DNA from: Escherichia coli
Lineage (GTDB): Bacteria > Pseudomonadota > Gammaproteobacteria > Enterobacterales > Enterobacteriaceae
Assembly (NCBI RefSeq): GCF_046105845.1
Contig: NZ_CP151004.1
DNA length: 64,000 nucleotides
Strand: one strand, 5' to 3'
A program made the translations under genes and the position numbers. Below are positions 16,246 to 55,500 of the stretch, piece after piece. Position 1 is the stretch's first letter, and each line of letters opens with the position of its first letter. The notes below the pieces were generated by a model. That model worked only from the letters and a program-made list of their open reading frames with translations. It was not told where the DNA came from and made no database searches.

Positions 16246-16287
16246 GTCATACCACTCGCCTGATTATTTTTAGCTATGTTGGATTTT

Positions 16288-16314
16288 GCCACGGTTTATA
16301 CCGTGGCTTTTTTT
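16288..16314 (+). terminator. Rho-independent terminator after allE
   Basis: gccacggt-ttat-accgtggc hairpin followed by ttttttt. Confidence 0.7.
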
Positions 16315-16329
16315 GCGGTAAATTCAGGT

Positions 16330-23712: not shown

Positions 23713-25494
23713 TTATTCATAGTGCATGAAGCAGGTTTCAGTCGGTGCGTCCACTGCGTTATCGGCGATATCTTCAAATTCCATGACGTTATCCAGTTCG
23801 CTGCCCATCGAAATATTGGTCACACGCTCGAGAATAACTTCCACGACTACCGGTACCCGATATTGCGCCATTAAGGCTTTCGCCTGTTCAAAGGCTGGTG
23901 CAATATCTTCCGGTTTGAAAACGCGAATCGCTTTACAACCTAAACCTTCCGCTACTTTTACGTGGTCGACGCCGTAACCGTTCACTTCACTGGAGTTAAT
24001 ATTTTCGAACGCGAGCTGTACGCAGTAATCCATATCAAACGCGCGCTGCGACTGGCGAATCAGCCCCAGATAGGCGTTATTGACCAGTACATGGATGTAC
24101 GGAATGTTGAACTGTGCGCCAACGGCTAATTCTTCAATCAGGAACTGGAAGTCGAAGTCACCGGAAATCGCCACCACATTGCGCTCTGGATCAGCGGCAC
24201 ACACGCCCAGCGCCGCCGGAATGGTCCAGCCCAACGGGCCTGCCTGCCCACAGTTGATCCAGTGGCGGTCTTTAAAGACATGCAGCATTTGTGCCGCAGC
24301 GATTTGTGACAGACCAATGGTGGTGACATAACAAACATCGCGACCAAAGGCTTTGTTCATCTCTTCATACACGCGCTGCGGTTTCACCGGCACATTGTCG
24401 AAGTGGGTTTTGCGCAGCAAAGTGCGTTTGCGCTGCTGGCAGTCGGCGACCCATTCTTTACGACACGGCAGACGACCCGCTTTTTGCATCTCCTGCGCCA
24501 CTTCAACCAGCAGTGTCAGCGCCGCTTTAGCATCAGAGACAATGCCGAGATCCGGACACAGCACGCGGCCAATTTGCGTCGGCTCAATATCGATATGAAC
24601 GATTTTGCGCCCTTCGGTGTATTTCTCTACCGAACCGGTATGACGGTTCGCAAAACGGTTACCGATACCAAACACCATGTCGGACGCCAGTAGCGTTGCG
24701 TTACCGTAACGATGCGCGGTTTGCAGACCCACCATCCCGGCCATCAGTTCGTGGTCATCCGGGATACAGCCCCAGCCCATCAGCGTTGGGATCACCGGAA
24801 CGCTGGTCAGTTCAGCAAACTGTTGTAGCAGTGCAGCTGCGTCAGCATTGATTACCCCGCCCCCGGCAACAATCACCGGACGTTCGGCCTGAATTAACAT
24901 TTCTACCGCTTTTTCGATCTGCATACGGCTGGCAGCAGGTTTGTAGACCGGCAGCGGTTCGTACATGTCAGGATCAAACTCGATTTCCGCAACCTGAACG
25001 TCGAACGGTAAATCCACCAGTACCGGACCCGGACGACCAGAACGCATCAGGTGAAACGCCTGTTGCAGCACGCGAGGCACCAGCGCCGCTTCACGAACTG
25101 TAACCGCCATTTTGCTGACCGGTTTAGCAATTGCTTCAATATCTACGGCCTGAAAATCTTCTTTATGCAGACGGGCGCGCGGTGCCTGGCCGGTAATGCA
25201 CAGAATAGGAATGGAATCAGCAGAAGCGGAATAGAGCGCGGTGATCATGTCCGTGCCCGCAGGACCGGAAGTCCCCAGACATACGCCGATATTCCCTGCC
25301 GTTGCGCGGGTATAACCTTCCGCCATGTGCGAAGCACCTTCCACATGACGCGCCAGAATGTGACGAATACCGCCGTGCTTACGCATCGCTGAGTAGAACG
25401 GATTGATTGCAGCTCCCGGAACGCCGAAGGCGGTGGTGATACCTTCTTTCTCCAGCACATACATTGCCGCGTCAACGGCTCTCATTTTTGCCAT
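23713..25494 (-). CDS. gcl: Glyoxylate carboligase (ThDP-dependent)
   Basis: ORF 23713..25584; ATG at 25494 gives the 593-aa form [34 protein letters not shown]... Confidence 0.96.
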
Positions 25495-25505
25495 TTTATT
25501 CCTAC

Positions 25506-25522
25506 CTCTATTAATTGGAAAA
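25506..25522. promoter_or_regulatory. Candidate AllR operator in the gcl promoter region
   Basis: Perfect 17-bp palindrome ttggaaaaattttccaa just upstream of the gcl start; a near-identical palindrome sits in the allS-allA intergenic region. Confidence 0.6.
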
Positions 25523-25536
25523 ATTTTCCAACTTTC

Positions 25537-25562
25537 AAATTTTGTCAAAAAACCCCGCTCCG
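25537..25562 (-). terminator. Probable terminator after allR
   Basis: Minus-strand hairpin cccgct/agcggg with 6-nt loop, followed by a U-run. Confidence 0.5.
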
Positions 25563-25583
25563 CAGAGCGGGATGCGACAGACA

Positions 25584-26399
25584 CTATGGATGTGCTTTCA
25601 GTCCCAACGCCGTGCTGATATCGCGGGCGGTGTCTCTGACCAGCTCACCCTGACTGACAAAACGATCTTCTGTCAGTCTTGATGAAGGCCCGGAGATGGA
25701 GATAGCGGCAACAACGCTACCTACATCATCGTAAATTGCTGAAGCTATGCAATTCAGACCGACAACATGCTCTTCTTTATCTACGGTATAGCCCAGTTCA
25801 CGCGCTTGTTCCAGGTCCTTCAGCAAGGTGGGCATATCCACAAGCGTCGTTGGCGTAAACTGCTGCAAACCGGTTTGCAGAATGATGCTCATCAACTCCT
25901 CTTCCGCCAGCGGATAAAGCAGCGCCTTGCCCGCACCGGAAGCATGCAGCGGCAGACGACTGCCCAGCGGCGCACACATCCTGACCATCGATTTACACTC
26001 CAACTGACCAATTAATACTGCTTCATTGCCGTTACGAATCGCGACATTGACCGTTTCGCCGGAAAGTAACATCAGGCGGCGCATAAACGGCCCGGCGACG
26101 GAGAGGACATCGCGGTTATGGATGTACGCCGCACCGACGTTAAAAACACCTAATCCTATATGCCACCAGCCTAACTGACTGTCCTGGTAGACAAAATCCG
26201 CTGCCTGTAAAACCTTCAGCAAGCGAAAGGTCGTGGAGAGCGGCAAATCCAGATTGAGAGAAATATCGCTAACCGACGAACTCCCCCCACTTTTTTCCAG
26301 ATATTGCAGAATCGCAATTCCCCGCTCTAACGCCTGTGCGCCCTTCTGTGCCACAGGCTCCGCCTGTCCTGGCCTGCCGCGCCGTCTAACTTCCGTCAT
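25584..26399 (-). CDS. allR: IclR-family repressor of allantoin/glyoxylate genes
   Basis: 271-aa ORF, recognised AllR ([32 protein letters not shown]...). Confidence 0.95.
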
Positions 26400-26454
26400 A
26401 CCTACGTTAACTCCGACCTACAAGTGAGCATAAACAATGAACAATTAGTTTATC

Positions 26455-26859
26455 TTATGCAAGTCGGTTGCAGGCGAAAAGTGGGTGATGCCAGACGTTA
26501 CGATGGTAATTCACTCCCTGTTCGCCGTTGGTAATAAACGCCCGCAGAGTTGACAGGTCTGGTTTGTCGTCACCTAACGCCACGACCACCACAAACACTT
26601 CACCTTTCATCGGGATAAAGGCCTGAGTACCCAGCGGATGACGTTCGAGTTCGTGAATGGTCAGCGGCAGATTCGCCGGTTGCGCGCGGTTAATGCTGAT
26701 AAGCGTACGGTCTTGCTCAAGAATCTCAACCAGCGCCAAATCGTGGTAACGCTCCACCAGGCCATTGTTAATATGGAAAAAATCCCGTTGCTGCGTTTCG
26801 ATTACATCGCCATAAGCACTAAAGGCTTCCTGACTTAACGGTAATACCTGAAGTTTCAT
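26455..26859 (-). CDS. allA: Ureidoglycolate lyase, apparently C-terminally shortened
   Basis: 134-aa [31 protein letters not shown]... ending ...[11 protein letters not shown], stop 55 bp upstream of allR start. Start at 26859 is bounded by an in-frame TGA upstream. Confidence 0.8.
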
Positions 26860-26964
26860 CTTTTTGTCCTTGTAACATAATTCCGTTCAACCACCGCCGA
26901 CCGGTCAGCTTGGTTTCAATAACAGGCAATCTAAAACCTTAAGAGAACAACATCAACACAAAAG

Positions 26965-26981
26965 TTGGAATATTTTTCCAA
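26965..26981. promoter_or_regulatory. Candidate AllR operator in the allS-allA divergent promoter region
   Basis: 17-bp palindrome ttggaatatttttccaa, near-identical to the one upstream of gcl. Confidence 0.6.
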
Positions 26982-27088
26982 AACTAGATTTAGTCCACAA
27001 ATTGAACAGGGTTATCATGTAAAAATACTGATAAATCAGAGGATAAGAAAATCACGCAACTTGCGGATTTAAAAGGGGATACCTGAAG

Positions 27089-28015
27089 ATGTTCGATCCA
27101 GAAACCTTGCGGACTTTCATTGCGGTTGCTGAAACAGGAAGTTTTTCAAAAGCGGCAGAACGATTATGTAAAACCACGGCGACAATCAGTTATCGCATTA
27201 AACTTCTGGAAGAGAATACCGGAGTGGCGCTGTTTTTCCGCACGACTCGCAGCGTGACGTTGACAGCGGCTGGCGAGCATCTACTTTCTCAGGCCAGAGA
27301 CTGGCTGAGCTGGCTGGAAAGTATGCCAAGCGAGCTGCAACAGGTGAATGATGGCGTGGAACGCCAGGTGAATATTGTCATCAACAACCTGCTCTATAAT
27401 CCCCAGGCCGTCGCCCAGTTGCTGGCGTGGCTGAATGAGCGTTACCCCTTTACCCAGTTTCACATCTCCCGACAAATCTATATGGGCGTCTGGGACTCGC
27501 TATTGTACGAAGGTTTTTCGCTGGCTATCGGCGTCACGGGAACTGAGGCGCTGGCAAATACCTTTAGTCTTGATCCCTTAGGATCGGTGCAATGGCGCTT
27601 TGTCATGGCGGCGGATCATCCGCTGGCGAACGTTGAAGAGCCGCTAACAGAAGCTCAGTTGCGTCGCTTTCCGGCGGTCAATATTGAAGACAGCGCCCGC
27701 ACCTTAACCAAACGCGTCGCCTGGCGATTGCCAGGGCAAAAAGAGATTATTGTTCCTGATATGGAAACGAAAATCGCCGCCCATCTGGCGGGCGTTGGCA
27801 TTGGTTTTTTGCCAAAATCACTTTGCCAGTCAATGATCGATAATCAACAACTGGTCAGCCGGGTAATCCCAACGATGCGCCCTCCTTCGCCATTGAGTCT
27901 GGCATGGCGCAAATTTGGCAGCGGCAAAGCGGTAGAAGATATTGTGACCTTGTTTACCCAACGCAGGCCGGAAATCAGCGGATTTTTAGAAATTTTCGGC
28001 AACCCACGCAGTTAA
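27089..28015 (+). CDS. allS: LysR-family activator of allantoin catabolism
   Basis: 308-aa ORF with N-terminal HTH; recognised AllS. Confidence 0.93.
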
Positions 28016-28068: not shown

Positions 28069-29178
<1,110 letters not shown>

Positions 29179-29241
29179 TGGGCGGTATTCTGAAACGGCG
29201 ATTGTCGTGAGAACAGAATGGTTGCACCAGAATACAGATAT

Positions 29242-29271
29242 AAAAAAACCGACATGACAGTCGGTTTTTTT
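29242..29271. terminator. Bidirectional intrinsic terminator
   Basis: Perfect 12-bp stem aaaaaaaccgac / gtcggttttttt with 6-nt loop; a U-run follows in either reading direction. Lies after selU (+) and at the predicted 3' end of the antisense sRNA (-). Confidence 0.6.
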
Positions 29272-29329
29272 ATTTTTTCCGCCCAAAACTTGGTGGTTCC
29301 GGGCAGAAATGAAACAGTCCTCATCTAGC
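29242..29329 (-). ncRNA. Candidate antitoxin sRNA of a type I toxin-antitoxin module
   Basis: Minus-strand promoter -35 TTGAAT (29364..29359), 17-bp spacer, -10 TATAAT (29341..29336); predicted start ~29329; terminator 29242..29271. Its 5' end is the reverse complement of 29315..29330, a 16-nt direct repeat of 29503..29518 in the toxin 5' UTR, so it can pair with the toxin mRNA in trans. Confidence 0.4.
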
Positions 29330-29776: not shown

Positions 29777-29875
29777 GCCAGATGCGGCGTAAACGCCTTA
29801 TCCGGCCTACACAATCTTGCAAAATCAATATATTGCACGATCCTCGTAGGCCTGATAAGCGTAGCGCATCAGGCA
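29777..29875. repeat. REP/BIME palindromic elements
   Basis: gccagatgcggcgtaaacgccttatccggcctac ... cgtaggcctgataagcgtagcgcatcaggc, inverted REP pair next to the ybbP stop. Confidence 0.6.
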
Positions 29876-38320: not shown

Positions 38321-38480
<160 letters not shown>

Positions 38481-38867: not shown

Positions 38868-39233
38868 TTAAATTTTCCTGCCTGGCGTAAACCTCTTAAA
38901 AATTGAGATTTATCAAAGAAACGCATTTTAGCACACATCAGGAACCGCTTCACGTTTAGTTCAGAAACAGAATTTATTTCGCTTATCAAAACAAGTCTTT
39001 ACTCTTTTTTACATTGAAAGAGCACAAAATGATTTTCTATTTTATTTATATAAGAAACATTTTTTGTTTCTTATTGGTGGTGTTTACGCTTACACCAGAC
39101 AAAAATGCGCTTTACATCACACAAATGGCGGCGTAGATTTCGATCAAATTGCAACGCAGATTAATTCTTATAACAACGTTTTACGTTGCTTATAGAAACA
39201 AATATGTGACTTACTTTGAAAGAGAAAAAATGC

Positions 39234-42125
39234 ATGAAAACTGTAAAGCTGTCTTTACTGGCTGTCGTTGTTGCTACCGCGGTAAGTCCATCTGCGTTTG
39301 CGGGTGATACTGTTGAGGCGGCAACGACAGAATTAACGGCAATCCAGCCAGGAATGTCGCAATCGGAAATTGATCAGAAAATTGGTCGATTTTTAGAAAG
39401 GACAGGGAATAGTGCAGCCGCACAAAATTATCTGATTGCGCATGATTACCGGACAACGACACCTCAGGAAAATACAGCTGCCTCTCCCGTACAGCCCGCC
39501 AATACGCTGAACCCGATAACCAATCAAGCGCAGACCGACCGCGACAACGGGCAGGATACCGCCATTCAGGACGCACAACATGCCGCCAACTGGGCTTCAC
39601 TGAAAGCTGATGACGCGCAGCACGCCATCACGGTGGCGCAGACGGATATTGATGCCAATAAAGCCGCCATCGCCGACACCCGTAATGATGTCTCCGCAGT
39701 GCAGTCAGACGTCACCAACATAAAAGGCGATGTCGCACATGCCCAGTCAACGGCTGACCATGCCAACGCTAACGCCAACACCGCTCTGATGAACGGCGTC
39801 AAACTTTCCGGTGCTGTGGCAGAAAACAAAAACAATATCGAACAGAACCGCAGCGATATTGCTGACCAGCAGAAACTGTTGGCATCAAACGAGCAAAAAC
39901 AGATCGTCCGCGACAACGGGCAGGATACCGCCATTCAGGACGCGCAACATGCCGCCAACTGGGCTTCACTGAAAGCTGATGACGCGCAGCACGCCATCAC
40001 GGTGGCGCAGACGGATATTGATGCCAATAAAGCCGCCATCGCCGACACCCGTAATGATGTCTCCGCAGTGCAGTCAGACGTCACCAACATAAAAGGCGAT
40101 GTCGCACATGCCCAGTCAACGGCTGACCATGCCAACGCTAACGCCAACACCGCTCTGATGAACGGCGTCAAACTTTCCGGTGCTGTGGCAGAAAACAAAA
40201 ACAATATCGAACAGAACCGCAGCGATATTGCTGACCAGCAGAAACTGTTGGCATCAAACGAGCAAAAACAGATCGTCCGCGACAACGGGCAGGATACCGC
40301 CATTCAGGACGCGCAACATGCCGCCAACTGGGCTTCAATGAAAGCTGATGACGCGCAGCACGCCATTATGGTGGCGCAGACGGATATTGATGCCAATAAA
40401 GCCGCCATCGCCGACACCCGTAATGATGTCTCCGCAGTGCAGTCAGACGTCACCAACATAAAAGGCGATGTCGCACATGCCCAGTCAACGGCTGACCATG
40501 CCAACGCTAACGCCAACACCGCTCTGATGAACGGCGTCAAACTTTCCGGTGCTGTGACAGAAAACAAAAACAACATCGAACAGAACCGCAGCGATATTGC
40601 CGACCAGCAGAAACTGTTGGCATCAAACGAGCAAAAACAGATCGTCCGCGACAACGGGCAGGATACCGCCATTCAGGACGCACAACATGCCGCCAACTGG
40701 GCTTCAATGAAAGCTGATGACGCGCAGCACGCCATTATGGTGGCGCAGACGGATATTGATGCCAATAAAGCCGCCATCGCCGACACCCGTAATGATGTCT
40801 CCGCAGTGCAGTCAGACGTCACCAACATAAAAGGCGATGTCGCACATGCCCAGTCAACGGCTGACCATGCCAACGCTAACGCCAACACCGCTCTGATGAA
40901 CGGCGTCAAACTTTCCGGTGCTGTGACAGAAAACAAAAACAACATCGAACAGAACCGCAGCGATATTGCCGACCAGCAGAAACTGTTGGCATCAAACGAG
41001 CAAAAACAGATCGTCCGCGACAACGGGCAGGATACCGCCATTCAGGACGCACAACATGCCGCCAACTGGGCTTCAATGAAAGCTGATGACGCGCAGCACG
41101 CCATTATGGTGGCGCAGACGGATATTGATGCCAATAAAGCCGCCATCGCCGACACCCGTAATGATGTCTCCGCAGTGCAGTCAGACGTCACCAACATAAA
41201 AGGCGATGTCGCACATGCCCAGTCAACGGCTGACCATGCCAACGCTAACGCCAACACCGCTCTGATGAACGGCGTCAAACTTTCCGGTGCTGTGACAGAA
41301 AACAAAAATAATATCGAACAGAACCGCAGCGATATTGCTGACCAACAGCAACAACTCGACGAAACCCGGAAAACCGTTGCCGCCACCGGTGATGTACAGA
41401 CTGCCGCCCGATATCAGAGCATGATTGACGCCAGACAGACTGCTGCTGCCAATGCGCAACAGGAACAAGCGGACACCCAGCAGCAACAAATGGACGATCA
41501 GCAGAAACAAATCGACGCGACGCAAAAAACGGTTTCCGCACTTGGCGATGCCCAGACCAACGCACATTATCAAGAGATGGTTAACGCCGGACTGAGAGCA
41601 CAAAATGATGCGAATGCGCGTACTGCAGCAGAACAAAAACAAAAAATAGATACTCTGGCGACTAACCAGGCAACGCAACAGCATATCGATAGTGTGCAGT
41701 ACGGGGAACAAATTCAGCGTCTGGCGCAAGACTCAACACAAACGCATGAACAAATTGACAGCCTGACACAAGACGTAACCCAAACGCATCAGCAGTTAAG
41801 CAACACGCAAAAACGAGTAGCGGATAATAGCCAGCAGATTACTACGCTCAATAACCATTTCAGTTCGCTGAAAAACGAAGTTGAGGACAACCGTAAAGAA
41901 GCCAATGCGGGAACTGCATCAGCCATCGCTATCGCCTCACAACCACAGGTGAAAGCCGGTGACTTTATGATGATGTCAGCGGGAGCGGGAACCTTCAACG
42001 GTGAATCTGCGGTGTCTGTCGGAACATCTTTTAATGCCGGAACGCATACCGTGATTAAAGCCGGTGTCTCTGCGGATACGCAATCTGATTTCGGCGCGGG
42101 TGTCGGCGTGGGATATTCTTTCTAA
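39234..42125 (+). CDS. Trimeric autotransporter adhesin-like protein (type Vc) with coiled-coil repeat stalk and YadA-type anchor
   Basis: ORF 39216..42125; ATG at 39234 gives 963 aa. Sec signal peptide MKTVKLSLLAVVVATAVSPSAFA; long Q/A/N/D-rich helical repeat region; C-terminus EANAGTASAIAIASQPQVKAGDFMMMSAGAGTFNGESAVSVGTSFNAGTHTVIKAGVSADTQSDFGAGVGVGYSF fits the YadA-like anchor pattern (alternating small residues, glycine-rich beta strands, terminal aromatic). No recognisable YadA head motifs. Confidence 0.75.
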   Translation: MKTVKLSLLAVVVATAVSPSAFAGDTVEAATTELTAIQPGMSQSEIDQKIGRFLERTGNSAAAQNYLIAHDYRTTTPQENTAASPVQPANTLNPITNQAQTDRDNGQDTAIQDAQHAANWASLKADDAQHAITVAQTDIDANKAAIADTRNDVSAVQSDVTNIKGDVAHAQSTADHANANANTALMNGVKLSGAVAENKNNIEQNRSDIADQQKLLASNEQKQIVRDNGQDTAIQDAQHAANWASLKADDAQHAITVAQTDIDANKAAIADTRNDVSAVQSDVTNIKGDVAHAQSTADHANANANTALMNGVKLSGAVAENKNNIEQNRSDIADQQKLLASNEQKQIVRDNGQDTAIQDAQHAANWASMKADDAQHAIMVAQTDIDANKAAIADTRNDVSAVQSDVTNIKGDVAHAQSTADHANANANTALMNGVKLSGAVTENKNNIEQNRSDIADQQKLLASNEQKQIVRDNGQDTAIQDAQHAANWASMKADDAQHAIMVAQTDIDANKAAIADTRNDVSAVQSDVTNIKGDVAHAQSTADHANANANTALMNGVKLSGAVTENKNNIEQNRSDIADQQKLLASNEQKQIVRDNGQDTAIQDAQHAANWASMKADDAQHAIMVAQTDIDANKAAIADTRNDVSAVQSDVTNIKGDVAHAQSTADHANANANTALMNGVKLSGAVTENKNNIEQNRSDIADQQQQLDETRKTVAATGDVQTAARYQSMIDARQTAAANAQQEQADTQQQQMDDQQKQIDATQKTVSALGDAQTNAHYQEMVNAGLRAQNDANARTAAEQKQKIDTLATNQATQQHIDSVQYGEQIQRLAQDSTQTHEQIDSLTQDVTQTHQQLSNTQKRVADNSQQITTLNNHFSSLKNEVEDNRKEANAGTASAIAIASQPQVKAGDFMMMSAGAGTFNGESAVSVGTSFNAGTHTVIKAGVSADTQSDFGAGVGVGYSF
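39540..41343 (+). repeat. 4.9 tandem copies of a 369-bp (123-aa) near-identical in-frame repeat within the autotransporter gene
   Basis: cgcgacaacgggcaggatacc recurs at 39540, 39909, 40278, 40647 and 41016 (exact 369-bp period). Unit begins RDNGQDTAIQDAQHAANWAS... Copies 1-2 and copies 3-5 form two subtypes (LKADD/ITVAQ/AVAEN versus MKADD/IMVAQ/AVTEN). Confidence 0.92.
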
Positions 42126-42836: not shown

Positions 42837-43244
42837 TCACCCCGCCCGATGATGACAGCAGCCGGAGAGATTTTCGATAATCGGGCAGTCGGCGCTGTCA
42901 TCGCCAGGGCAGGCATTCGCCAGCGCCAACAGCTGGTTGCGCATGGATTGCAGTTCTTCGATATGTCGCTCGATCTCCGCCACTTTCTCCAGGGTGCGAC
43001 GTTTGACGTCGGCACTGTGACGCTGCGGATCGTTAAACAGATTCACCAGCTCGCCGCTCTCTTCCAGGTTAAAGCCCACCTGGCGTGCCTGGCGCAGTAA
43101 GGTCAGTTCGTTGAGATGCTGCTGCGTGTAAGTACGATAACCGTTTTCGCTGCGCATCGGCGGCGTCACCAGCCCCTTCTCTTCATAGAAGCGGATTGCT
43201 TTGCTGGTCAGGCCGGTAATTTTTGCTACATCGCTAATGTTCAT
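42837..43244 (-). CDS. cueR: MerR-family copper-responsive regulator
   Basis: 135-aa [32 protein letters not shown]... with C-terminal metal-binding CPGDDSADC...CCHH; recognised CueR. Confidence 0.95.
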
Positions 43245-44416
43245 CGTTCGCGCAACGCCTCCTGTGCTTTATTAAAGGGTTTCAACAGATAATCCAGCAC
43301 GCTTTTTTTGCCGGTGCGGATATCGACCGTCGCCACCATGCCGGGAAATATCGGAAACTGCTGTTTACTTTTGTTTTCCAGATGGTTGCTGAAAGTGCGA
43401 ATGTACACCCGATAGTAATAAACATCGCGCCGCACTTCATCCTGCACGGTGTCTGGTGATATCACCGCCACTTCTCCCGGCAGGCCGCCGTAGATGGAGT
43501 AATCGTAGGCGGTTATTTTCACCAGCGATTTTTGCCCCGGATGGATAAACGCCACATCGCGCGGGGAGATTTTTGCCTCGATCAGCAGTTGCTCATCCAG
43601 CGGCACGATGGTCATCAGTTTACCACCGGGGGCAATGACCCCGCCAACCGTGGTGACGTCAATGTCCTGAACAATGCCTCGCACCGGCGCGGTAAAGTTG
43701 AGCCTGGTGAGGGAGTCTTCCCGTCCACGGATCACCGAACGCTGGGTTTCCACTTCCGCATTGGCTTTCGCTAACTCTTCGCGCGCCTGAACGTAATATT
43801 GCGTGCGCACGTCGCTAAGTTTGTTTTCCAGTTCATTGGCCTGGCGTTGCAGGCGCAGCACTTCAACGCTGCTCGCCGCCCCCTGTTTTACCAGCGGCTG
43901 GGTCATCGCCAGTTCGCGGTTGACCAGGCTAATCCCCTGCGTCAGCCCGGTGGTGGCTTTGTTCAGCCCATCGCGGCGAGTGTTGTACAACGCCGTTTCC
44001 GACTCGATAAGTTCGGGGAATTTATTCAGTTCGTCAGGGAAGACCAGCGGTTTATTGCTCACTTCCGCCCGCAGCCGCGCCGAGGTTGCCAGCGCCGCGT
44101 ACAGCCGCGACATTGCTTCCTGGACGTCGGATTCCGTTTTGGTGCGGTTAAGCTGCGCCAGCGGCTGGCCCTGTTCAACAATATCGCCAACCTTGACGTC
44201 GAGATGATACAGAATTCCGCCTTCCAGCGACTGCACCACCTGTTCGCGCCCGGAGGGTTCTACCGTGCCGCTGCCGGTGGTGACTTCATCAAGCTGGAAG
44301 TACCACGCCCAGCCGAGAAAACAGAGCAGCATCACAGCGGTAACGCGTACCGCCAGCGCCGAACGCGGCAAGCGGGGTTCAGTCAGGCCACGGTTGTATT
44401 GCAGTTGTCCGTTCAT
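43241..44416 (-). CDS. Type I secretion periplasmic adaptor (HlyD family membrane fusion protein)
   Basis: 391-aa ORF with N-terminal TM anchor, long coiled-coil region and C-terminal beta domain typical of HlyD/LapC; its stop overlaps the cueR start (ATGA). Confidence 0.88.
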
Positions 44417-46575
44417 GCGGCAGACCCCTTATTCTTCTCCTGCAACACCACCCGTCGCGCCGTGGGTTCGCTCTGTTCACGCAAAATGGCCTCTTTCGCG
44501 CCATCCATCACAATCCGCCCCTGATCCATCACGATGATCCTGTCCACCAGTTGCAGCATCGCCGTGCGGTGAGTAGCGATGACCAGCGTGCGATGCCCAA
44601 TCCACTGTTTCAGTTGTTCGATTAAATACGCTTCCGCCATTTCGTCCAGCGAGGCGCTGGGTTCATCGAGCAGCACGATATTGGGTTGAGAGATGAGTAG
44701 CCGCGCCAGCAGCAGCGTTTGCCGCTGACCACCAGAGAGGCCAAATCCCCCTTCCTGAATCATGTAGTTGAGGCCGTTTTTCTGCTTCTGCACAAAGGGC
44801 AGCGCGCCACTTAGCGTTAACGCGCGTTCGATATCTTCATCGCTGGCCTCCGGCATCCCCATGGTGAGGTTTTCCCGCAGCGAACCAAAAAACAGTCGCC
44901 CGGTCTGGCTCAGCAGCCCCATGTCGCGGCGCAGATCTGCCGGATCAAGTTGCCCGATGCTGATGTTATCCAGTAGCACCTGCCCCTGCTGGGCGATACG
45001 CATTCCGGCGAGCATTTGCAGTAGCGTTGATTTACCCGCGCCGTTGCGCCCGAGAATGGCGATTTTCTCTCCGGCCTGAATGTTGAGTTTGCCAATCGCC
45101 ACATCGGCAATCTTCTCTTCTTCGTCGTAATAAAATACCGCGTTGCTGAACTGATAATTGCCGTGCAGCACCGCTTTATGCACCAGTTTGCCGTGTTCCG
45201 GCTGATCCACCGGGCGCTTCATCAGTTCATCAAGGCCATTACGCGCTACTTTCGCCTGCTGCCAGCGCGAGAGCACGCCGGATATCTGCGACAGCGGCGC
45301 GATGGTGCGCGAAGCCAGGATCGTCGTCCCGACCAGCGCGCCGGTGGTCATGTCACCGTTCATTACCATAAAGCAGCCCACCAACAGCACCACCACGTAG
45401 ACGATGGACTGCACTTCCTGGGTCCAGGTGAGCAGTAGCCCGGTGAGAAAACGTTGCTTCATACTGATGGACGAGGCCACGTCGTTGGTGTGGTTCCACT
45501 GATTCTGAAAACGCTGTTCGGCGCGCAGCAGCTTAATATCTTCAATCGACTGCACGGCTTCCACCAGCGTAGCGTTACGCACCGCCGACTCGCGCATCCC
45601 TTCGTTCGCCAGCCGCGCCAGCGGGCGTTGTACCAGCAGGCCGGGGATCACCAATAACGGCAGCGCCAGCAAAACCACCAGCACCAGCCAGCCGCCAATC
45701 ATCCACAAAATAAAGACAAACAGCAGGAAGAACGGCAGATCCGCCACTGCACCAATAGTGGTGGAGGTGATCAGCTCCCGAACCGATTCCAGTTCGCGGA
45801 TCTGCGAGATAAACGATCCGGTGGATTTCGATCGCACGTTGTTTTTAAGCCGTAGCGCATGACCAAAAACGCGATCCGAAATACGCAGATCCGCCCGCTT
45901 GCCGATCACATCCGAAAGATGTGTGCGCACCATGCGCATACAGAACTCAAACAGGATCGCCATCATCACCCCGGCGAACAGCACCCATAGCGTCGGGTAC
46001 GATTGCGCCGGAACGACGCGGTCGTAAACCTGCATCGAGAAAATCATCGCCGCAAGCGCCAGCACGTTCGCCACCAGTGACGCCAGCATAATATCGCCAT
46101 AGCGCCGCCAGTCTTTTAGCGAGAGATTCCAGAACCAGTTCGCCTGATACGGGCGAATATAGTCGTCTACCCGCGCGTCAGGAATAGCGCTGAGCGGGCG
46201 CAACAGCGCCAGTTCGACGATGTTATCTTCAATATCCGTAACGTTAAGCGTGGTTTCCAGCCCTTCGTCACCGCTGAACTGAACGCTGATATTGTCGTGA
46301 TTATCGCGGCGGGTGATCACGCCAATCTGCTGATTATCAAATACCGCGATCAGCGGCAGACGCCACGGGTTAAGCGAGTCGGCGGAGAACTCCACCAACC
46401 GTAACCCCATTCCCAACTGCCGCGCCATATCGGTGAGCAACTCTTCCCGCTTGCTGTCGCGCTCCCAGTTGACGGTTGCGCGCACGTTCTCCTGAGAAAA
46501 ATCGAGGCGGTAATAACGCGCCACGGCGATCATCGCCTCCAGCCAGGCTTCCACGGACTGGGCATTTTTTTTCAT
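44413..46575 (-). CDS. Type I secretion ABC transporter (ATPase/permease) with N-terminal C39-like extension
   Basis: 720-aa ORF: ~150-aa N-terminal extension, 6-TM region, then Walker A GRNGAGKST, signature LSGGQRQ, Walker B LLDEPSASLD; its stop overlaps the adaptor start (ATGA). Confidence 0.9.
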   Translation of the reverse strand: MKKNAQSVEAWLEAMIAVARYYRLDFSQENVRATVNWERDSKREELLTDMARQLGMGLRLVEFSADSLNPWRLPLIAVFDNQQIGVITRRDNHDNISVQFSGDEGLETTLNVTDIEDNIVELALLRPLSAIPDARVDDYIRPYQANWFWNLSLKDWRRYGDIMLASLVANVLALAAMIFSMQVYDRVVPAQSYPTLWVLFAGVMMAILFEFCMRMVRTHLSDVIGKRADLRISDRVFGHALRLKNNVRSKSTGSFISQIRELESVRELITSTTIGAVADLPFFLLFVFILWMIGGWLVLVVLLALPLLVIPGLLVQRPLARLANEGMRESAVRNATLVEAVQSIEDIKLLRAEQRFQNQWNHTNDVASSISMKQRFLTGLLLTWTQEVQSIVYVVVLLVGCFMVMNGDMTTGALVGTTILASRTIAPLSQISGVLSRWQQAKVARNGLDELMKRPVDQPEHGKLVHKAVLHGNYQFSNAVFYYDEEEKIADVAIGKLNIQAGEKIAILGRNGAGKSTLLQMLAGMRIAQQGQVLLDNISIGQLDPADLRRDMGLLSQTGRLFFGSLRENLTMGMPEASDEDIERALTLSGALPFVQKQKNGLNYMIQEGGFGLSGGQRQTLLLARLLISQPNIVLLDEPSASLDEMAEAYLIEQLKQWIGHRTLVIATHRTAMLQLVDRIIVMDQGRIVMDGAKEAILREQSEPTARRVVLQEKNKGSAA

Positions 46576-46578
46576 TAT

Positions 46579-49500
46579 CTACACCACCATCAACTGATGA
46601 TTCGCCAGCAAAGTGGCGAGGTCGGTGTGCACGCCCGTCAGCGTGACCACGTTAGTTGTCGCAAAAGTGCCGCCCGTGCCGTCGCGGTCGATCTGTACGA
46701 TGGTGTCGCTGCCGCTCTGGGTGACTTTGACAAAATCACCGATGTTTCCGGCCTGCGCATCCAGCGTTGCCACGCCGTTGACGTAGCTGGCTTTACCGTT
46801 GCCGGTGTAGCCGCTGCCCTGTAACAACTCGCGGATATCAATGCGATCGGTGTCGGCGGTGCCTTCCCATGTCCCTACCGTAAAGCCATTCACCACGTCT
46901 GAGCCGTTGCCGCCGGTCGCGTCGCTGGCGTTGAGCAGTTTATAGAGCAAGGTGTCGTGGCCGCCGTTGCCGATGTTGAGCGTGTCGTTACCGCCGCGCC
47001 CTTCCAGTTGGTTATCGCCGCTGCTGCCGGTCAGAGTGTCGTTAAAATTCGAGCCGGATATCCCTTCGATATTGGTAAATGTCGAGGTGTTAAAGCCGGT
47101 GGCCTGCGCGGCGGTGCTGCTTAAGTTCGCGGTCACGCCCACCGTCGAGAGGCGGAAATCAACCACGTCCATCCCGCCATTCGCCAGCCACGTTCCGGTG
47201 CCGGAGCTGTACACCCAACCGCCGGAGCCGTCGTAAGTGTCGGTGCCTGCGGTGGCAAAGAAGGTGTCGTTATAGCCGGTGCCGACGAACTTGCCATTGT
47301 TGCTCGCGGTGCCTGCTTCGGCGCTGAGGTCGTAAGCGTGGGTGGCATCGGTGGCCTGTAAGCCGCCCCAGCTGGTGTTGACCGTCTGGTCGATATTGCT
47401 GGCGGTGGTGCCGGTGGATTTGATCAGCACCGCGTTGTAGGTTTCTCCGGCATTCAGCCCGTAGAAGTTGACCAGCGCCGAGGTGTCGTTAACCCCCATA
47501 CCCGACTGCGGGTTGATGATTTGCGTGGCGACCAGCACTCCCGCCGAGTTGTACAGTTTTACGGTATTGCCGTAATAGACGTTAATGCCGTTAGGATCGG
47601 TGATGCGCAGGTGCAGCGAAGTGCCGTAGCTCACCGTGTTGGTGTTGCGAATAAGATAGACGCTGCCCGACTGTTTGGTCACCAGCACATCCACCGCGCC
47701 GTCCCAGTCGTAGTCCATTGCCGCCACGCCGCTGGTGGTACCGCTCTGGCTACCGCCGAGGGCCGATTGTGTCCAGTTGCTGGCATTGCTGACGTTGGTA
47801 TAAAGATACGACTGCCCGGTCTGGGCGATACGGGCGATATCCATCAGGCCGTCATGGTTCCAGTCCACCGCCAGGCTAAACTGGCTGGCGTAGGTGGTTG
47901 CCGTTGCGCCCACCGCCACCGGGCTACCCAGTACACCGTTGGTGTTGAATAACAGCGAGCCGTAGTTAGCTCTTCCCTGGCTGGCGGGCAGGAAGAGATC
48001 CATATCGCCGTCGCCATCGAAATCGGCCCAGGTCATGGAAACGCTGCTGCTCATAGCGCCACTACCCGCCCCGCTCAGGAAGGTATTGGTGGTGTTCTGC
48101 CCCCAGACAAACGTCCCATTCCCCTGGTTGATGAGCGAAGACAGTGTGTAATAGTTATTCAGGTTATAGGTGTGCTGAACCAGGTCGATCCTGCCGTCAT
48201 TATTCAGATCGACGCCAGAACCTTCGTTGAGCGAAAGATACCCCGTCACCGCCCCGCCCACCGTGGCGCTACCGCCGCTGTTCGACGTGGTGGAGGTGCC
48301 TACCAGCGTGCCTGCGTTGTTCCACAAGAAGGTGTTAGAGTCCGGCCCGCCCGCGTCGCCAATCCAGAAGTCGAGATAGCCGTCGCCCTCTTTATCAAAT
48401 GCCACAATCGAGCCGTACCACGTCAGGGTGCCGACGGTGACCTGAATAGCGCTGGAAAAGGTGCCGTCGCCGTTATTGGTAAAGCCGTTGATATAGCCTG
48501 TACCGTAGTCATCACGGGTGATAAACAGATCGCCCGTGCCGTTACGGTCGTAATCGGCGATGGAGCTGGTGGCGTAGTTGTTGCCGCTCTGATACAGCGT
48601 CAGCGCGGTCTTCGACCAGGTGAGTGGGTCAGTCGATTGCATTACCTGCTGGTTTGCCAGCACCGTCCACATCCCGTGCGAGTCGAGGCCGTAGGTCAAT
48701 CCCCAGGCGGTGGTTTTGCTGACGGTGGTCCAGGTCGGTGTGTAATCAATCGCCGCATTAACCGTCACCGTGCCGTTGCTAATATTGGCGTTATTGCCGT
48801 TACCCGCCGAACTTTTTACCTGCGCAGTAACGGTATAGGCGGTCGCGGAAACTGTCAGCGCATCGGTATCCGGCAACTGTACATACCAGGTGTTGTGCGC
48901 CGGATCGACCACTACCGCGCCGCCCGGTTCAGAGGTGTAGGTTTTGCCGTTGATCACCACTTCAACATACTGCCCACTGGCGAGTGCCGCCGTGATTACC
49001 CCGCTGATAATCGGCGTGGTATCGCGCGTGGTCTGGCTGGTAATTTGCGCCAGCGTGGTCGGAATAGAGGTATCGACCGTCAGGACAAAATCACTGGAGG
49101 CGGTGATATTCCCCGCCAGATCCACCACTCGCGCACTGTAGGTGTAGGCACCGCTCACCAGCCCGCTGTCGCTGTAGGTCCAGTTCAGTGCGCCTACCAT
49201 CGTTACCGCGCCTAACAGCAGGCCGTTACGGTAGAGGTAAACCACTTCACCGCTGGCAAGCGGGCCGGAGAGCACGCCGTTCAGCAACGGCGTAGTGTCG
49301 TCGGTGGCCTGCGAACTGCTTAATGTCCCCTGCCGCTGCCCGACGTCATCAGTGTACGACACAATGGTCGGCGTCGCGGTGGGGTTAATCGTATCGACCA
49401 CCACCGTTTTCGACACCACCGGACCGGTGTTCCCCGCCAGATCCAGCACCCGCACCTGATAAACATAGCTGCCGTCGGTCAGCGTGCGGCTGTCAGTGTA

Positions 49501-52500
49501 GGTCCACTGCGTGCCGTTGGTGGTGAGCGTGATCCAGGTCGCGCCACCATCGAGGCTAATCTGCGCCACTTCGCCACTGGCAAGCCCCGCCCCCAGTGAA
49601 CCCGTCAGCGTGAGCGTGGTATCGCTGGTGATAAAGTCAGTTGCCGAACTCCCCGTGTCGGTGCTGATACTGGCGATGGTGAGTACCTGCGCCGGGTTAA
49701 CGGTATCGATCAGCGCCGACTGGCTGCCGGTTGCGCCAACGTTGCCCGCAAGATCGACTACCCGCACCTGCCAGGTGGTGGTGCCGTTGGTGAGCGTGCG
49801 CCCGTCAACGTAACTCCAGTTAAGGCCGTCTGCGGCGACGGTCACGTTCACCCAGGTTGCGCCGTTGTCGGTACTGATTTGCGCGAACTCATTAGCGCCG
49901 AGCGCCGCGCCCAGCACGCCGCGCACGGTAAGCGAGGTGTCGCTGGTAATAAAATCGCTACTGCTGGCTCCGGTGTCATCGCTGATACCGGTAATGGTGA
50001 TACTTTTCGCCGCTTCCGGGCTGGTGGTGTCGACCACCACATTTTGCGTTGCGGTCTGCCCGACATTCCCCGCCAGATCCACCACCCGCACCGTGTAGTT
50101 CCAGGTGCCGTCGGTCAGTGTGCGACCATCGGCATAGCTCCAGCTGGTGCCGATAACGGTTAAGGTGGTCCAGGTAACACCGCCGTCGAGGCTGATTTGC
50201 GCCCGTTCATCGGCGGCAAGCGCCGCGCCGAGCGTGCCGCGCACGGTCAGCGTGGTGTCGCGGGTGACAAAATCGCTGCTGCTTAACCCGGTGTCATCGC
50301 TGATGCCCGCAATGGCGATGGTTTTGCTCGCCAGCGGCGCGGTGGTGTCCACAGTGACTATCTGGCTGGCGGTCGCGCCGATATTTCCGGCGGTGTCGAT
50401 CACCCGCACCTGATAGTTGTAGTTGCCGTCGCTCAGCGTGCGCCCGTCAAGATATGTCCAGGTTAAGCCGCTTACCGAAAGATTCTGCCAGGTGGTGCCG
50501 CCGTCGATGCTGATTTGCGCGAACTCACCGGCAGAAAGCGCCGCGCCCAGCGTGCCGCTTACCGCAAGCGTCGTGTCGCTGGTGACAAAATCGTTAGTGA
50601 TCAGGCCCGTATCGGTAGTGATCGCGCTGATGGCGATGGTTTTCACCGCGGGATCTGGCGCGATGGTGTCGATCACCACATTCTGGCTGTCGGTGGCACC
50701 GACGTTGCCCGCAGCGTCAATCACCCGCACCTGATAGAGATAGTTGCCATCGGTCAGCGTGCGGCTGTCGTTATAACGCCAGGTCGTGCCGGTAACGGTG
50801 AGCGTGGTCCAGGTTACGCCGCCGTCGATACTGATTTGTGCCGTCTCGTTACTGGCAAGCGCGGCGGTGAGCGAGCCGTTGACCACCACCGGACTGACGC
50901 TGGTGATAAAGTCGCTGGCGCTAAGCCCAGTGTCGGCTTGCAGGGAATCGATATTAATACCCATCGCCGGGACGCTGAGATCGACAGTAATGGTGTGATT
51001 GCTGCTGCCGGTGTTGCCAATGGCGTTGCTCACCGAGGCATTAATCACATAGGCATTGCCGTCCGTCAGCGCGGTGACATCGGCGCTGCCGAGGGTGTAG
51101 CTCCAGCTACCGCCGGTCTGTACCGTGGTGGTGTAGGTTTTGCCGTTTAAGGTCAGGGTCAGCGTCTGCCCGACGGGTGCGGTGGTGGTGCCGCTGATCA
51201 CCAGCGACGAGCCGTGTTCCGCCGCGTTCACCACATCATCGCCCGCAAAGGTGTTGATGGTGACGGTAGGCACATCGCCGTTCAACGTCACGCCACGGCT
51301 GGCGCTGCCGGGGTTTCCGGCCTGATCGGCGACCGACGCGCTGATGGTGTAGCTGCCGTCGCTTAATCCGGCAAACTGCTGCGCCGGAATAAACACCGAC
51401 CAGCTTCCGCCGCTGCCGACCGTTGCAGTCCAGCTCTGACCGTTAAAGGTGACGGTCACCGTCTGGCCCACTTCAGCGGTGGTGGTGCCGCTGATGGTTT
51501 GCCCAGCGAGCTGTTCGGCGTTGTTGATAATATCGTCACCCGCCACCGTGGCGATGGTGACCGTGGGCGCAACGGTATCGACGGTCAGGGCGTGCGTGGT
51601 TTGACCGGGGTTACCGGCGCGATCGTTCACGCTGGCGGTAATGGTCTGCGCGCCCTGCCCGAGTGCGGCCAGATCCGCCGCAGGCACGTTAAGCGCCCAG
51701 GTGCCATTGGCGGCCACCGTGGCAGTGTAAGTTTTGCCGCCAAAGGTGACAGTGACCGTCTGCCCCACTTCCGCGCTGGTCGAGCCGTTAAGGGTTAACG
51801 GCTGCTGTTGTTCGGCGGCGTTGAGTCGGTCGTCCGTTGAAACCGTGTTTATGCTGATAATCGGCGCGGTGAGATCCACCGCAACACTGCGCGAGGCCGT
51901 GGCGCTGTTTCCGGCGCTGTCCTGGGCGGAGGCGCTAACCGTGTAGCTGGTGCCATCCGCCAGTGCCGCGACGTCTGCCGCCGGCACGTTCACGCTCCAG
52001 CTCCCGTTGCTCTGAATGGTGGCGCTGTAGCCTTTGCCGTTAAGCAACACGGTCACTACTGTACCTGCGGCAAAGTTCGTTCCGGTGCCGATCAGGGTCA
52101 GCGCACTGCCCGCTTCGGCGGCGTTAATAATATTATCGCCGCTGATGGTGCTGACCGAGAGCGACACTGCCGCCGTGTTCACCTGCACGTTGTGCGTCTG
52201 CGTGCTGCTGTTGCCTGCGCTATCGGTGATAGTGGCGCTGATGGTCACCGTGCCGTCTGCAAGGCCGGAAATCACGCTGGCAGGCACGCCGACGCTCCAG
52301 TTGCCGCTGGCATCGGTGCTGGTGACATACTGCTGCCCGGCGATGGTCACCACCAGGCGGTCGCCCGCCACTGCGCCCGTGGCGGTGCCGCTGATAATCT
52401 GCGCCTGAGTGTGTTCGACGTTGTTAATCACATCATCGCCCGCCACGGTGTTAAAACTGATCACCGGCGCAGTGGTATCGACGGTCACGCCTTTGCTGGC

Positions 52501-55500
52501 GCTGCCAGGGTTACCCGCCAAATCGCTGACCGTGGCGGTCAGGGTGTAGCCGTTATTGGCAAGTGCGGTTAAGTCGCTGGCGGGCAGCGTTAAACTCCAG
52601 CTGCCGTCTGCCTGCACCGTGGTCTGGTAGTTAGTGCCGTTAAGCGTGACGGTCAGCGTCTGCCCCGTCTCCGCCGTGCTGGTGCCGGATACCGTCACGC
52701 CCGCCGCCGCTTCGCTGGCATTGATGATGTTATCGCTGGCAATGGTGTTGATGGTCACCGTTGGCGCGGCGCTATCGACGCTGTATTCATGCGTTGCCGT
52801 GGCGCTGTTGCCGTTGACGTTAGTCACCCGCACCTGGGCGCTGGCATCGCCGTCACGCAGGGCCGCCATATCCGCCGCCGGAACGGTGGTGCTCCAGCTA
52901 CCGTTTGCCGCCACCGTGGTGGTGTAGGTTTTACCGCCAAAAGTAATGGTAACGGTTTGCCCCGCTTCGACGCCGGACGTGCTGCCGGAGAGCGTTAGCG
53001 CCGCGCCTTTTTCGGCGGCGTTAATCACATCATCGCTGGTAATGCTGTTCATGCTGATGGCGACGGTAGTGAGATCAACAGTCAGCGGATGGGTAATGCT
53101 GGTTTGCGTTCCGGCACTGTTCGCGCCGCTAACGGTAATGTTCAGCGTTCCCGCAGGCCAGTTGCTGACATCCGCCGCCGGAACGCCGACGCTCCAGCTG
53201 CCGTTTGCCAGCACCGTGGCGGCGTAAGTTTGGTTATTAATCACCACCGTCAACGCCGTACCTGCGGCAAAACCGGAACTGCTGCCAGTAATCACCTGCG
53301 CCTGGGCGTGTTCGATAATATTCACCACATCATCGCCCGCGACGGTATCCACCCGCAGGCCGGGTAGACTGGCATCGATGGTGATATCGCGCGTGCCGCT
53401 ACCGGTGTTGCCAACGGCGTTGGTCACCAAGGCATTAACCGTTAACTCACCGTTACCCAGCGCCTGCCAGTCGGCGGCAGGTACGCTCACATTCCAACTT
53501 AAATCAGCCTGGACCGTGGCGGTGTAAGTTTTACCGCCCAGTTCAACGGTGACGGTGCTGCCCGCCGCCGCACCGGTTACCTGGCCGCTGATGGTTTGCG
53601 CACTGCCTGCTTCAGCGGCGTTGATAATATCGTCCGTCGCCACCGGATTAATGGTGACGCCCGGTAGCGCGGTATTGACCTGCACGTTATGGCTGGCGGT
53701 GCTGCTGTTACCCTGAGCATTTGTGACGCTCGCCGTCACGCTGTAGGTGGCTTCGCCCAGCGCACTGACCGCCGAGGCGGGCACGGTTACGCTCCAGTTG
53801 CCGGAGGCGTCGGTAGTGGCGCTGTAGTTTTGTCCGTTCAGCGTAACGGTGATCGCCGTACCCGCAGGCTGATCGCTGGTGCCGGAAAGCGTCAGATCAG
53901 ATCCTTTTTCCGTCGCGTTGATCACATCATCGCCCGCGATGGTGTTGATGCTAATCACTGGCGCGCTGAGGCTGACGGTCACGGTGCGGCTGGCGTCATC
54001 GCTGTTACCCGCCCGATCGCTGACGCTGGCGGTGATGGTCTGTGCGCCGCTACCCAGTGCCGTAACATCCGCCGCTGGAACGCCAACGCTCCAGTTGCCG
54101 GAGGCATCCAGGGTGGTGGTGTAGGTTTTGCCGTTGAGCACAACGCTCACCACATCGCCCGCTTCCCCGCCCGTGCTGGTGCCGGAGATCACCAGCGCCT
54201 GCGCATGTTCGGCATCGTTGATAATGTCATCGCCCGCCACAGTGTTAATGGTGAGAACCGGCGCGGTGGTGTCTACCGCCAGATTATGGCTGGCGCTGCC
54301 GGGGTTGCCCGCTTTGTCGTTGACCGTGGCGCTGACGGTGTAATTGCTTGCGCTCAGCGCGCCTAAGGCTGAAGGGGGAACGCTGACGCTCCAGCTACCG
54401 TCTGCCTGCACATTACCGCTGTAGGTTGCGCCGTTAAGGGTGACGGTGACCGTCTGCCCGGTTTCGGCGGTGCTGGTGCCGCTGATGGTGAGCGGGCTTC
54501 CCGCCTCCGTGGCGTTAAGAATATCGTCGCTGGCAATGGTGTTAATGGTGAGCGTCGGCGCGCTGGCGTCAACGCTGTACGCATGGGTCGCCGAGGCGCT
54601 GTTACCGCTCGCGCTGCTAACGCTGGCCTGCACGTTCGCCGCGCCGTCTGGCAGAGTTGCCAGATCTGCCGCCGGAACGTTCACACTCCAGCTTCCGTTG
54701 GCGGCGACGCTTGCGGTGTAGGTTTTACCGCCAAAGATGACGGTAACGGTTTGCCCGCTTTCAATCCCGCTGGTGCTGCCGGAAAGGGTCAGACCAGTGC
54801 CTTTTTCGGCGGCGTTAATTACGTCGTCGCTGGCAACGGTGTTGATGCTGATTGCCACCGCCGTTAAATCGACGGTGAACGGATGGCTGACGCTGACCGG
54901 ATTTCCGGCGCTGCTCTGGCCTGCCACGTCAACGGTTAACGCCCCCGCAGGCCATGCGCTGACGTTTGTCGCCGGAATGCCGACGCTCCAGCTCCCGTCT
55001 GCCTGTACCGTGGCGGAATAAGCCGTGCCGTTAATCGTGATCGTCAATGGCACGCCTGCATTCAGGCCGCTACTGCCGCCAGTGATCACCAGCGCCTGCC
55101 CGTGTTCAATGCTGTTGACGATATCATCGCCCGCTACCGTATCCACGCGCAGCCCTGGCAGGTTAGCGTCAATGGTGATATCCCGCGTACCGCTGCCCGT
55201 ATTGCCATTCGCGTTGGTGACCGAAGCGTTAATGGTCAAATCGCCATTGCCCAACGCCTGGAGATCGGCTGCCGGAACGCTGATACTCCAGCTTAAGTTG
55301 CCCTGTACCGTGGTGGTGTAAGTGTTGCCGCCCAGCGTGACGGTAACCGTATCGCCAGCGGCGGCACGAGTGACCACCCCGCTGATGGTTTGATCGGCCC
55401 CGGCTTCGGCGGCGTTGATAATATCATCGCCCGCCACGGTGTTGATGGTAACGCCCGGCAGGCCGCTATCGATCAGTAAATTCGCCTGGCTGCTGGCGGT

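Follow-up and report, generated by a model that had tools for sequence, protein, structure and literature searches.

Two sites at gcl and allS/allA that match the characterized AllR operators of Escherichia coli

Organization of the gcl–allR–allA–allS locus

The window, by which we mean the whole 64-kb stretch of DNA that was analyzed, is part of the E. coli chromosome and is matched by 5404 of 5426 complete genomes. Genes were named by reference to E. coli DNA with 99.9% identity that is annotated in RefSeq, together with tblastn and Pfam searches, and the features considered here are collected in Table 1. An intact repressor, which an AllR operator calls for as its cognate partner, is encoded at the locus: the protein encoded by allR shows 100% identity to WP_000141275.1, which is annotated as AllR, contains the Pfam domains HTH_IclR and IclR_C, and matches the structure deposited as PDB 1TF1 ('negative regulator of allantoin and glyoxylate utilization operons') with an E-value of 2e-110.

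Table 1 Coordinates of features in the 64-kb window.
Feature	Position	Strand	Remarks
STnc480	16252..16318	-	Rfam match above gathering score
gcl	23713..25494	-	glyoxylate carboligase; ATG at 25494; first gene of repressed operon
O-gcl (site 1)	25515..25531	.	TTGGAAAAATTTTCCAA; candidate AllR operator of the gcl operon
gcl -35 (candidate)	25543..25548	-	consensus TTGACA, read from sequence; 11 nt upstream of site 1
Terminator of allR and AllZ sRNA	25552..25573	-	intrinsic; 9-bp stem followed by T run
allR	25584..26399	-	IclR-family repressor, 271 aa; gene lies between both operators
allA	26455..26859	-	ureidoglycolate lyase, truncated here (134 aa); repressed gene
O-allSA (site 2)	26965..26981	.	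TTGGAATATTTTTCCAA; minus strand TTGGAAAAATATTCCAA; candidate AllR operator common to divergent allA and allS
allS	27089..28015	+	LysR-type activator of allD and allF operons, intact; repressed gene
mnmH	28084..29178	+	next gene downstream of allS
AgrB	29240..29328	-	Rfam match above gathering score; dinQ-like region between mnmH and ybbP
ES036	29811..29853	+	Rfam match above gathering score
naRNA4	38370..38447	+	Rfam match above gathering score

Relative to nearly all E. coli, the allA gene of this strain has lost 100 bp (junction 26470|26471), a segment that in intact genomes is bordered by a 6-bp direct repeat, CAGGCG, providing microhomology at its two ends. The deletion removes the last 30 codons together with the stop codon and leaves a 134-aa open reading frame with four aberrant C-terminal residues, in which the Pfam Ureidogly_lyase domain covers only profile positions 3–133 of 162. 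The same junction was found in only two of the 5426 complete genomes (ET650 and OkiPb01685), where PGAP annotates allA as a pseudogene. Beginning about 72 nt upstream of the allR start codon, the deletion might affect a promoter of allR as well. AllA makes glyoxylate, the inducer of AllR, from allantoin-derived ureidoglycolate, so with the 3' end of its gene lost, the regulon may be impaired in its induction by allantoin in this strain, in which the regulatory circuit is otherwise whole.

Sequence, specificity and identity of the two sites

Two 17-mers upstream of gcl and between allA and allS are each two-fold symmetric, with the form TTGGAA-N5-TTCCAA and a center made up of A and T only. Site 1 is located in the 89-bp spacer between allR and gcl, at a distance of 20 nt upstream from the gcl start codon. 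The 229-bp spacer between allA and allS holds site 2, whose center is 114 nt away from the ATG of allA and 116 nt from that of allS. The first-pass annotation had described these as two near-identical 17-bp palindromes at the gcl and allS/allA promoters. Both of the strings that it quoted occur exactly in the window, and its coordinates are right for site 2 (26965..26981); those given for site 1 (25506..25522) are 9 nt off the actual position and read CTCTATTAATTGGAAAA rather than the quoted string. The near-identity was borne out, the two sites agreeing at 15 of 17 positions on the same strand and at 16 of 17 on opposite strands, or at 20 of 21 on opposite strands when a CTTT flank is included. 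The 9-nt offset is the one error in that annotation. Site 1 forms a perfect palindrome (8+1+8), with no other of this kind in the 64-kb window, and in site 2 seven of the eight arm pairs are complementary.

Near-palindromes as such are common in this DNA, with 41 17-mers in the window having one arm mismatch or none. The core consensus TTGGAAWAWTWTTCCAA, by comparison, has exactly two matches in 64 kb and none in 100 dinucleotide shuffles, and no further core site was found in the 64-kb window at up to three mismatches. When spacers of equal length and composition were simulated, a common 17-mer with at most one mismatch arose in 2 of 3000 trials. A symmetrized weight matrix, built from 12 training sites of which ten came from other genomes and two were the window sites themselves, scored those two sites at 38.4 and 35.5 bits, with the next independent match in the window at 5.6 bits. 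A weak AllR-like match over the ribosome-binding site and ATG of gcl (core at 25488, 4.2 bits) was set aside, as its half-site pair is not conserved in Citrobacter or Providencia.

The AllR motif KTTGGAAWAWTWTTCCAAC, as tabulated in PMC8222616 (Table 1, citing Rintoul 2002), agrees with site 2 at 19 of 19 positions on the minus strand and with site 1 at 18 of 19 on either strand. A 37-nt 'AllR recognition site' given in PMC13300388, AAATCTAGTTTTGGAAAAATATTCCAACTTTTGTATT, corresponds exactly to K-12 positions 532319..532355, and the minus strand of the window differs from it by one flank SNP outside the 17-mer; in the comparison with K-12, the flank SNP next to O-allSA stands at window position 26957. 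The K-12 O-allSA 17-mer (532329..532345), which is also the core of the published 37-nt site, is identical to site 2, and the K-12 O-gcl 17-mer (533879..533895) differs from site 1 at the center base only. The AllR boxes of K-12 share with those in the window their target genes and their placement with respect to the start codons. The distance from operator to operator is 1450 bp in the window compared with 1550 bp in K-12, owing to the allA deletion.

That AllR represses gcl, allA and allS, that it binds the K-12 sequences and that glyoxylate releases it are all reported in the literature, in which the promoter of gcl and the control region of allS–allA are the two regions named, as the earlier annotation had said; allantoin is described as an AllR corepressor (PMC12535856). 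We consider it very likely that the two palindromes are the two characterized AllR operators, with AllR encoded between them, and binding of AllR to both is predicted in this strain from sequence. The proposal that they are AllR operator candidates is thus upheld by locus identity, by the published motif and by the published recognition sequence. These sites are already known, a textbook feature, and no new AllR biology is added here. Their suggested use as an internal control for motif detection is fitting, in that the exact consensus, the shuffles and the phylogenetic footprint described below all confirm the sites; they serve as a positive control in which a reading from sequence only recovered two experimentally characterized operators.

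Conservation of the sites and alternative explanations

The core pattern was searched for in one genome per species across 100,044 genomes (298 Gb), which returned at least 120 loci. Homologs of gcl, allR, allA and allS were present at five of the 120 matches listed and at no other match listed. Among these, two sites 1548–1647 bp apart were found in Citrobacter werkmanii, Citrobacter sp. FP75, Citrobacter sp. R56 and a metagenome-assembled genome (MAG) of Providencia, and the fifth was a short, truncated Superficieibacter locus. The other 115 listed matches were single sites, mostly in unrelated A/T-rich genomes (median GC 38%); because about 140 matches to the core pattern are expected by chance in 298 Gb, such single-site matches carry no information. 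Klebsiella, Salmonella and E. coli do not appear among the matches listed, an absence that carries no meaning.

When both spacers were aligned across these genomes, the arms of the 17-mers formed the longest invariant block, with changes limited to the central W positions and with flanks that diverge. O-gcl is invariant but for the center base in five genera, and O-allSA is conserved in six genomes. The sites are thereby conserved together with allR, as a phylogenetic footprint, in the three Citrobacter genomes, Superficieibacter and Providencia. A 13-residue segment of AllR that includes the recognition helix has the same sequence in five of the six genomes, the exception being Citrobacter sp. 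R56 with LSS in place of LST; in the Providencia protein the segment is unchanged despite an overall identity of 66%.

Within E. coli, the 30-mer containing O-allSA is found exactly in 4729 genomes, and the 30-mer containing O-gcl occurs among complete genomes with A at its center in 2464 and with T in 2499, a ratio of about 50:50. The center base of O-gcl is window position 25523, at which K-12 has the opposite allele. This base appears to be free, given a balanced A/T polymorphism over about 5000 genomes, and a symmetric dimer that makes no contact with it would be expected to permit such a balance.

A different repressor of the same family could bind the two sites in addition to AllR or in its place. 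IclR is the closest solved paralog of AllR, both proteins respond to glyoxylate according to the literature, and the IclR box of aceBAK and iclR resembles the AllR sites in being an A/T-rich palindrome with TGGAA/TTCCA outer arms that is read by a paralogous, glyoxylate-responsive repressor; the published IclR box, TGGAAATNATTTCCA (PMC8222616), comes within two differences of the 15-nt core at site 1 and three at site 2. Binding by IclR would connect the glyoxylate shunt with glyoxylate assimilation, but we regard it as very improbable: neither site is a match to the IclR box, the inner arm positions that separate the two published motifs are where the mismatches are found, and the AllR motif is fitted better, at 18–19 of 19 positions. 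The promoters examined here are assigned to AllR in the literature, and from genus to genus the sites accompany allR. The IclR box belongs to another regulon and another regulator. Other IclR-family sites, those of the KdgR and SsgR group (PMC8222616), share their motif class with the AllR sites, being palindromic around an A/T-rich center, but differ from them in half-site sequence and spacing and have unrelated target genes. A RutR box has been reported upstream of gcl, and no match to it was found near gcl at up to three mismatches.

The palindromes might instead be parts of the promoters themselves, either -35-like elements (TTGGAA agrees with TTGACA at four of six positions, and does so on both strands) or A/T-rich UP elements, for which the A/T-rich center and the position of site 2 exactly midway between two divergent genes would be suitable. 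A promoter element, however, requires neither a strict dyad nor identity between two unrelated promoters, nor does it require that all 12 GC-containing arm positions be invariant across genera, and at gcl a separate consensus TTGACA is present 11 nt upstream of site 1. This explanation is exceedingly unlikely as a substitute for repressor sites, and it is compatible with AllR binding as well. We assign an almost negligible probability to the remaining possibility, that the palindromes act as hairpins in the leader RNA of gcl, allS or allA, or are A/T-rich repeats that arose by chance. Hairpins can be drawn (-7.1, -5.4 and -4.4 kcal/mol), but their folding energies are no different from those of shuffled sequences (z = -0.9 to -1.6), and in the aligned spacers the arms do not vary and show no compensatory changes. 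Chance might be invoked from the 41 near-palindromes of this size in the window, but it is excluded by the shuffled sequences, by the simulated spacers and by the conservation across genera.

Promoter geometry and neighboring features

If the sites are AllR operators, each 17-mer would be read by the HTH pairs of an AllR dimer. At gcl, the T run of the allR/AllZ terminator ends near 25547 and is overlapped by the candidate -35 hexamer, TTGACA (25548..25543); between the terminator and the gcl ATG there are only about 47 nt. With a 17-nt spacer from this hexamer, a weak -10 sequence, AATTTT, and the transcription start would fall inside or at the edge of O-gcl. We infer from this geometry that AllR bound at O-gcl would occlude the -10 and start regions and so block RNA polymerase, because a consensus -35 hexamer precedes the operator and the ribosome-binding site follows it. 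A gcl -10 sequence proposed by a simple promoter scan overlaps the start codon and was rejected as spurious.

In the allA/allS spacer, a single central site would serve both divergent genes. By our own reading of the conserved blocks, the best promoter-like hexamers here flank the operator more than they clearly overlap it: one candidate allA promoter, TTGATG-17-TAGATT, would place the operator at about -52, and another, TGGACT-17-AATATT, would have its -10 sequence within the operator. At either site, following the literature, glyoxylate would free AllR from DNA and allantoin would strengthen its binding.

AllR reportedly acts as a tetramer, and each of the promoters has one dimer-sized palindrome, so a single tetramer could conceivably bridge O-gcl and O-allSA and loop out about 1.45–1.55 kb of DNA containing allR, AllZ and allA. 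The arrangement of the operators as inverted copies (20 of 21 nt) that are kept as a pair in every genus examined would fit such a loop; in the literature consulted, tetramer-dependent binding is described for IclR only. We consider bridging unlikely. If it does occur, repression of all of the promoters would be coupled.

The region on the minus strand at 25547..25781 is the counterpart of the K-12 sRNA AllZ (b4831, 533629..533863), which is derived from the allR 3' region and was verified by northern blot in PMC8175672. The annotated K-12 end of AllZ, 533863, corresponds to window position 25547, and the AllZ terminator abuts the gcl -35 and operator region; Rfam has no family for AllZ. At the boundary between stem and T run of this terminator, position 25553 has a private SNP, C in the window and A in the compared genomes, and the 89-nt allR–gcl spacer is found at 100% identity in no complete E. 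coli genome.

Upstream of allS, a block at 27017..27039 (ATGTAAAAATACTKATAAATCAG) is conserved across genera to nearly the same degree as the AllR box. This conservation is not accounted for by the AllR motif, and the block may correspond to the -10 region of allS or be bound by another regulator; nitrogen-dependent control of allS has been called unexplained (PMC12535856).

Farther downstream, the plus strand at 39216..42125 encodes a trimeric autotransporter adhesin, a 969-aa open reading frame that has a YadA-like membrane anchor and in which a 369-nt unit is repeated in tandem 4.9 times with 98% identity. On the minus strand, a giant open reading frame occupies 46579..63996 and runs to the end of the window; it spans more than 5805 aa, contains repeats of the Big_13 Ig-like, FG-GAP and RTX types, and is followed by genes for an ABC transporter (44413..46575) and an HlyD-family protein (43241..44416). 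The segment 43241..63996 on the minus strand is an island encoding a giant, type I-secreted adhesin.
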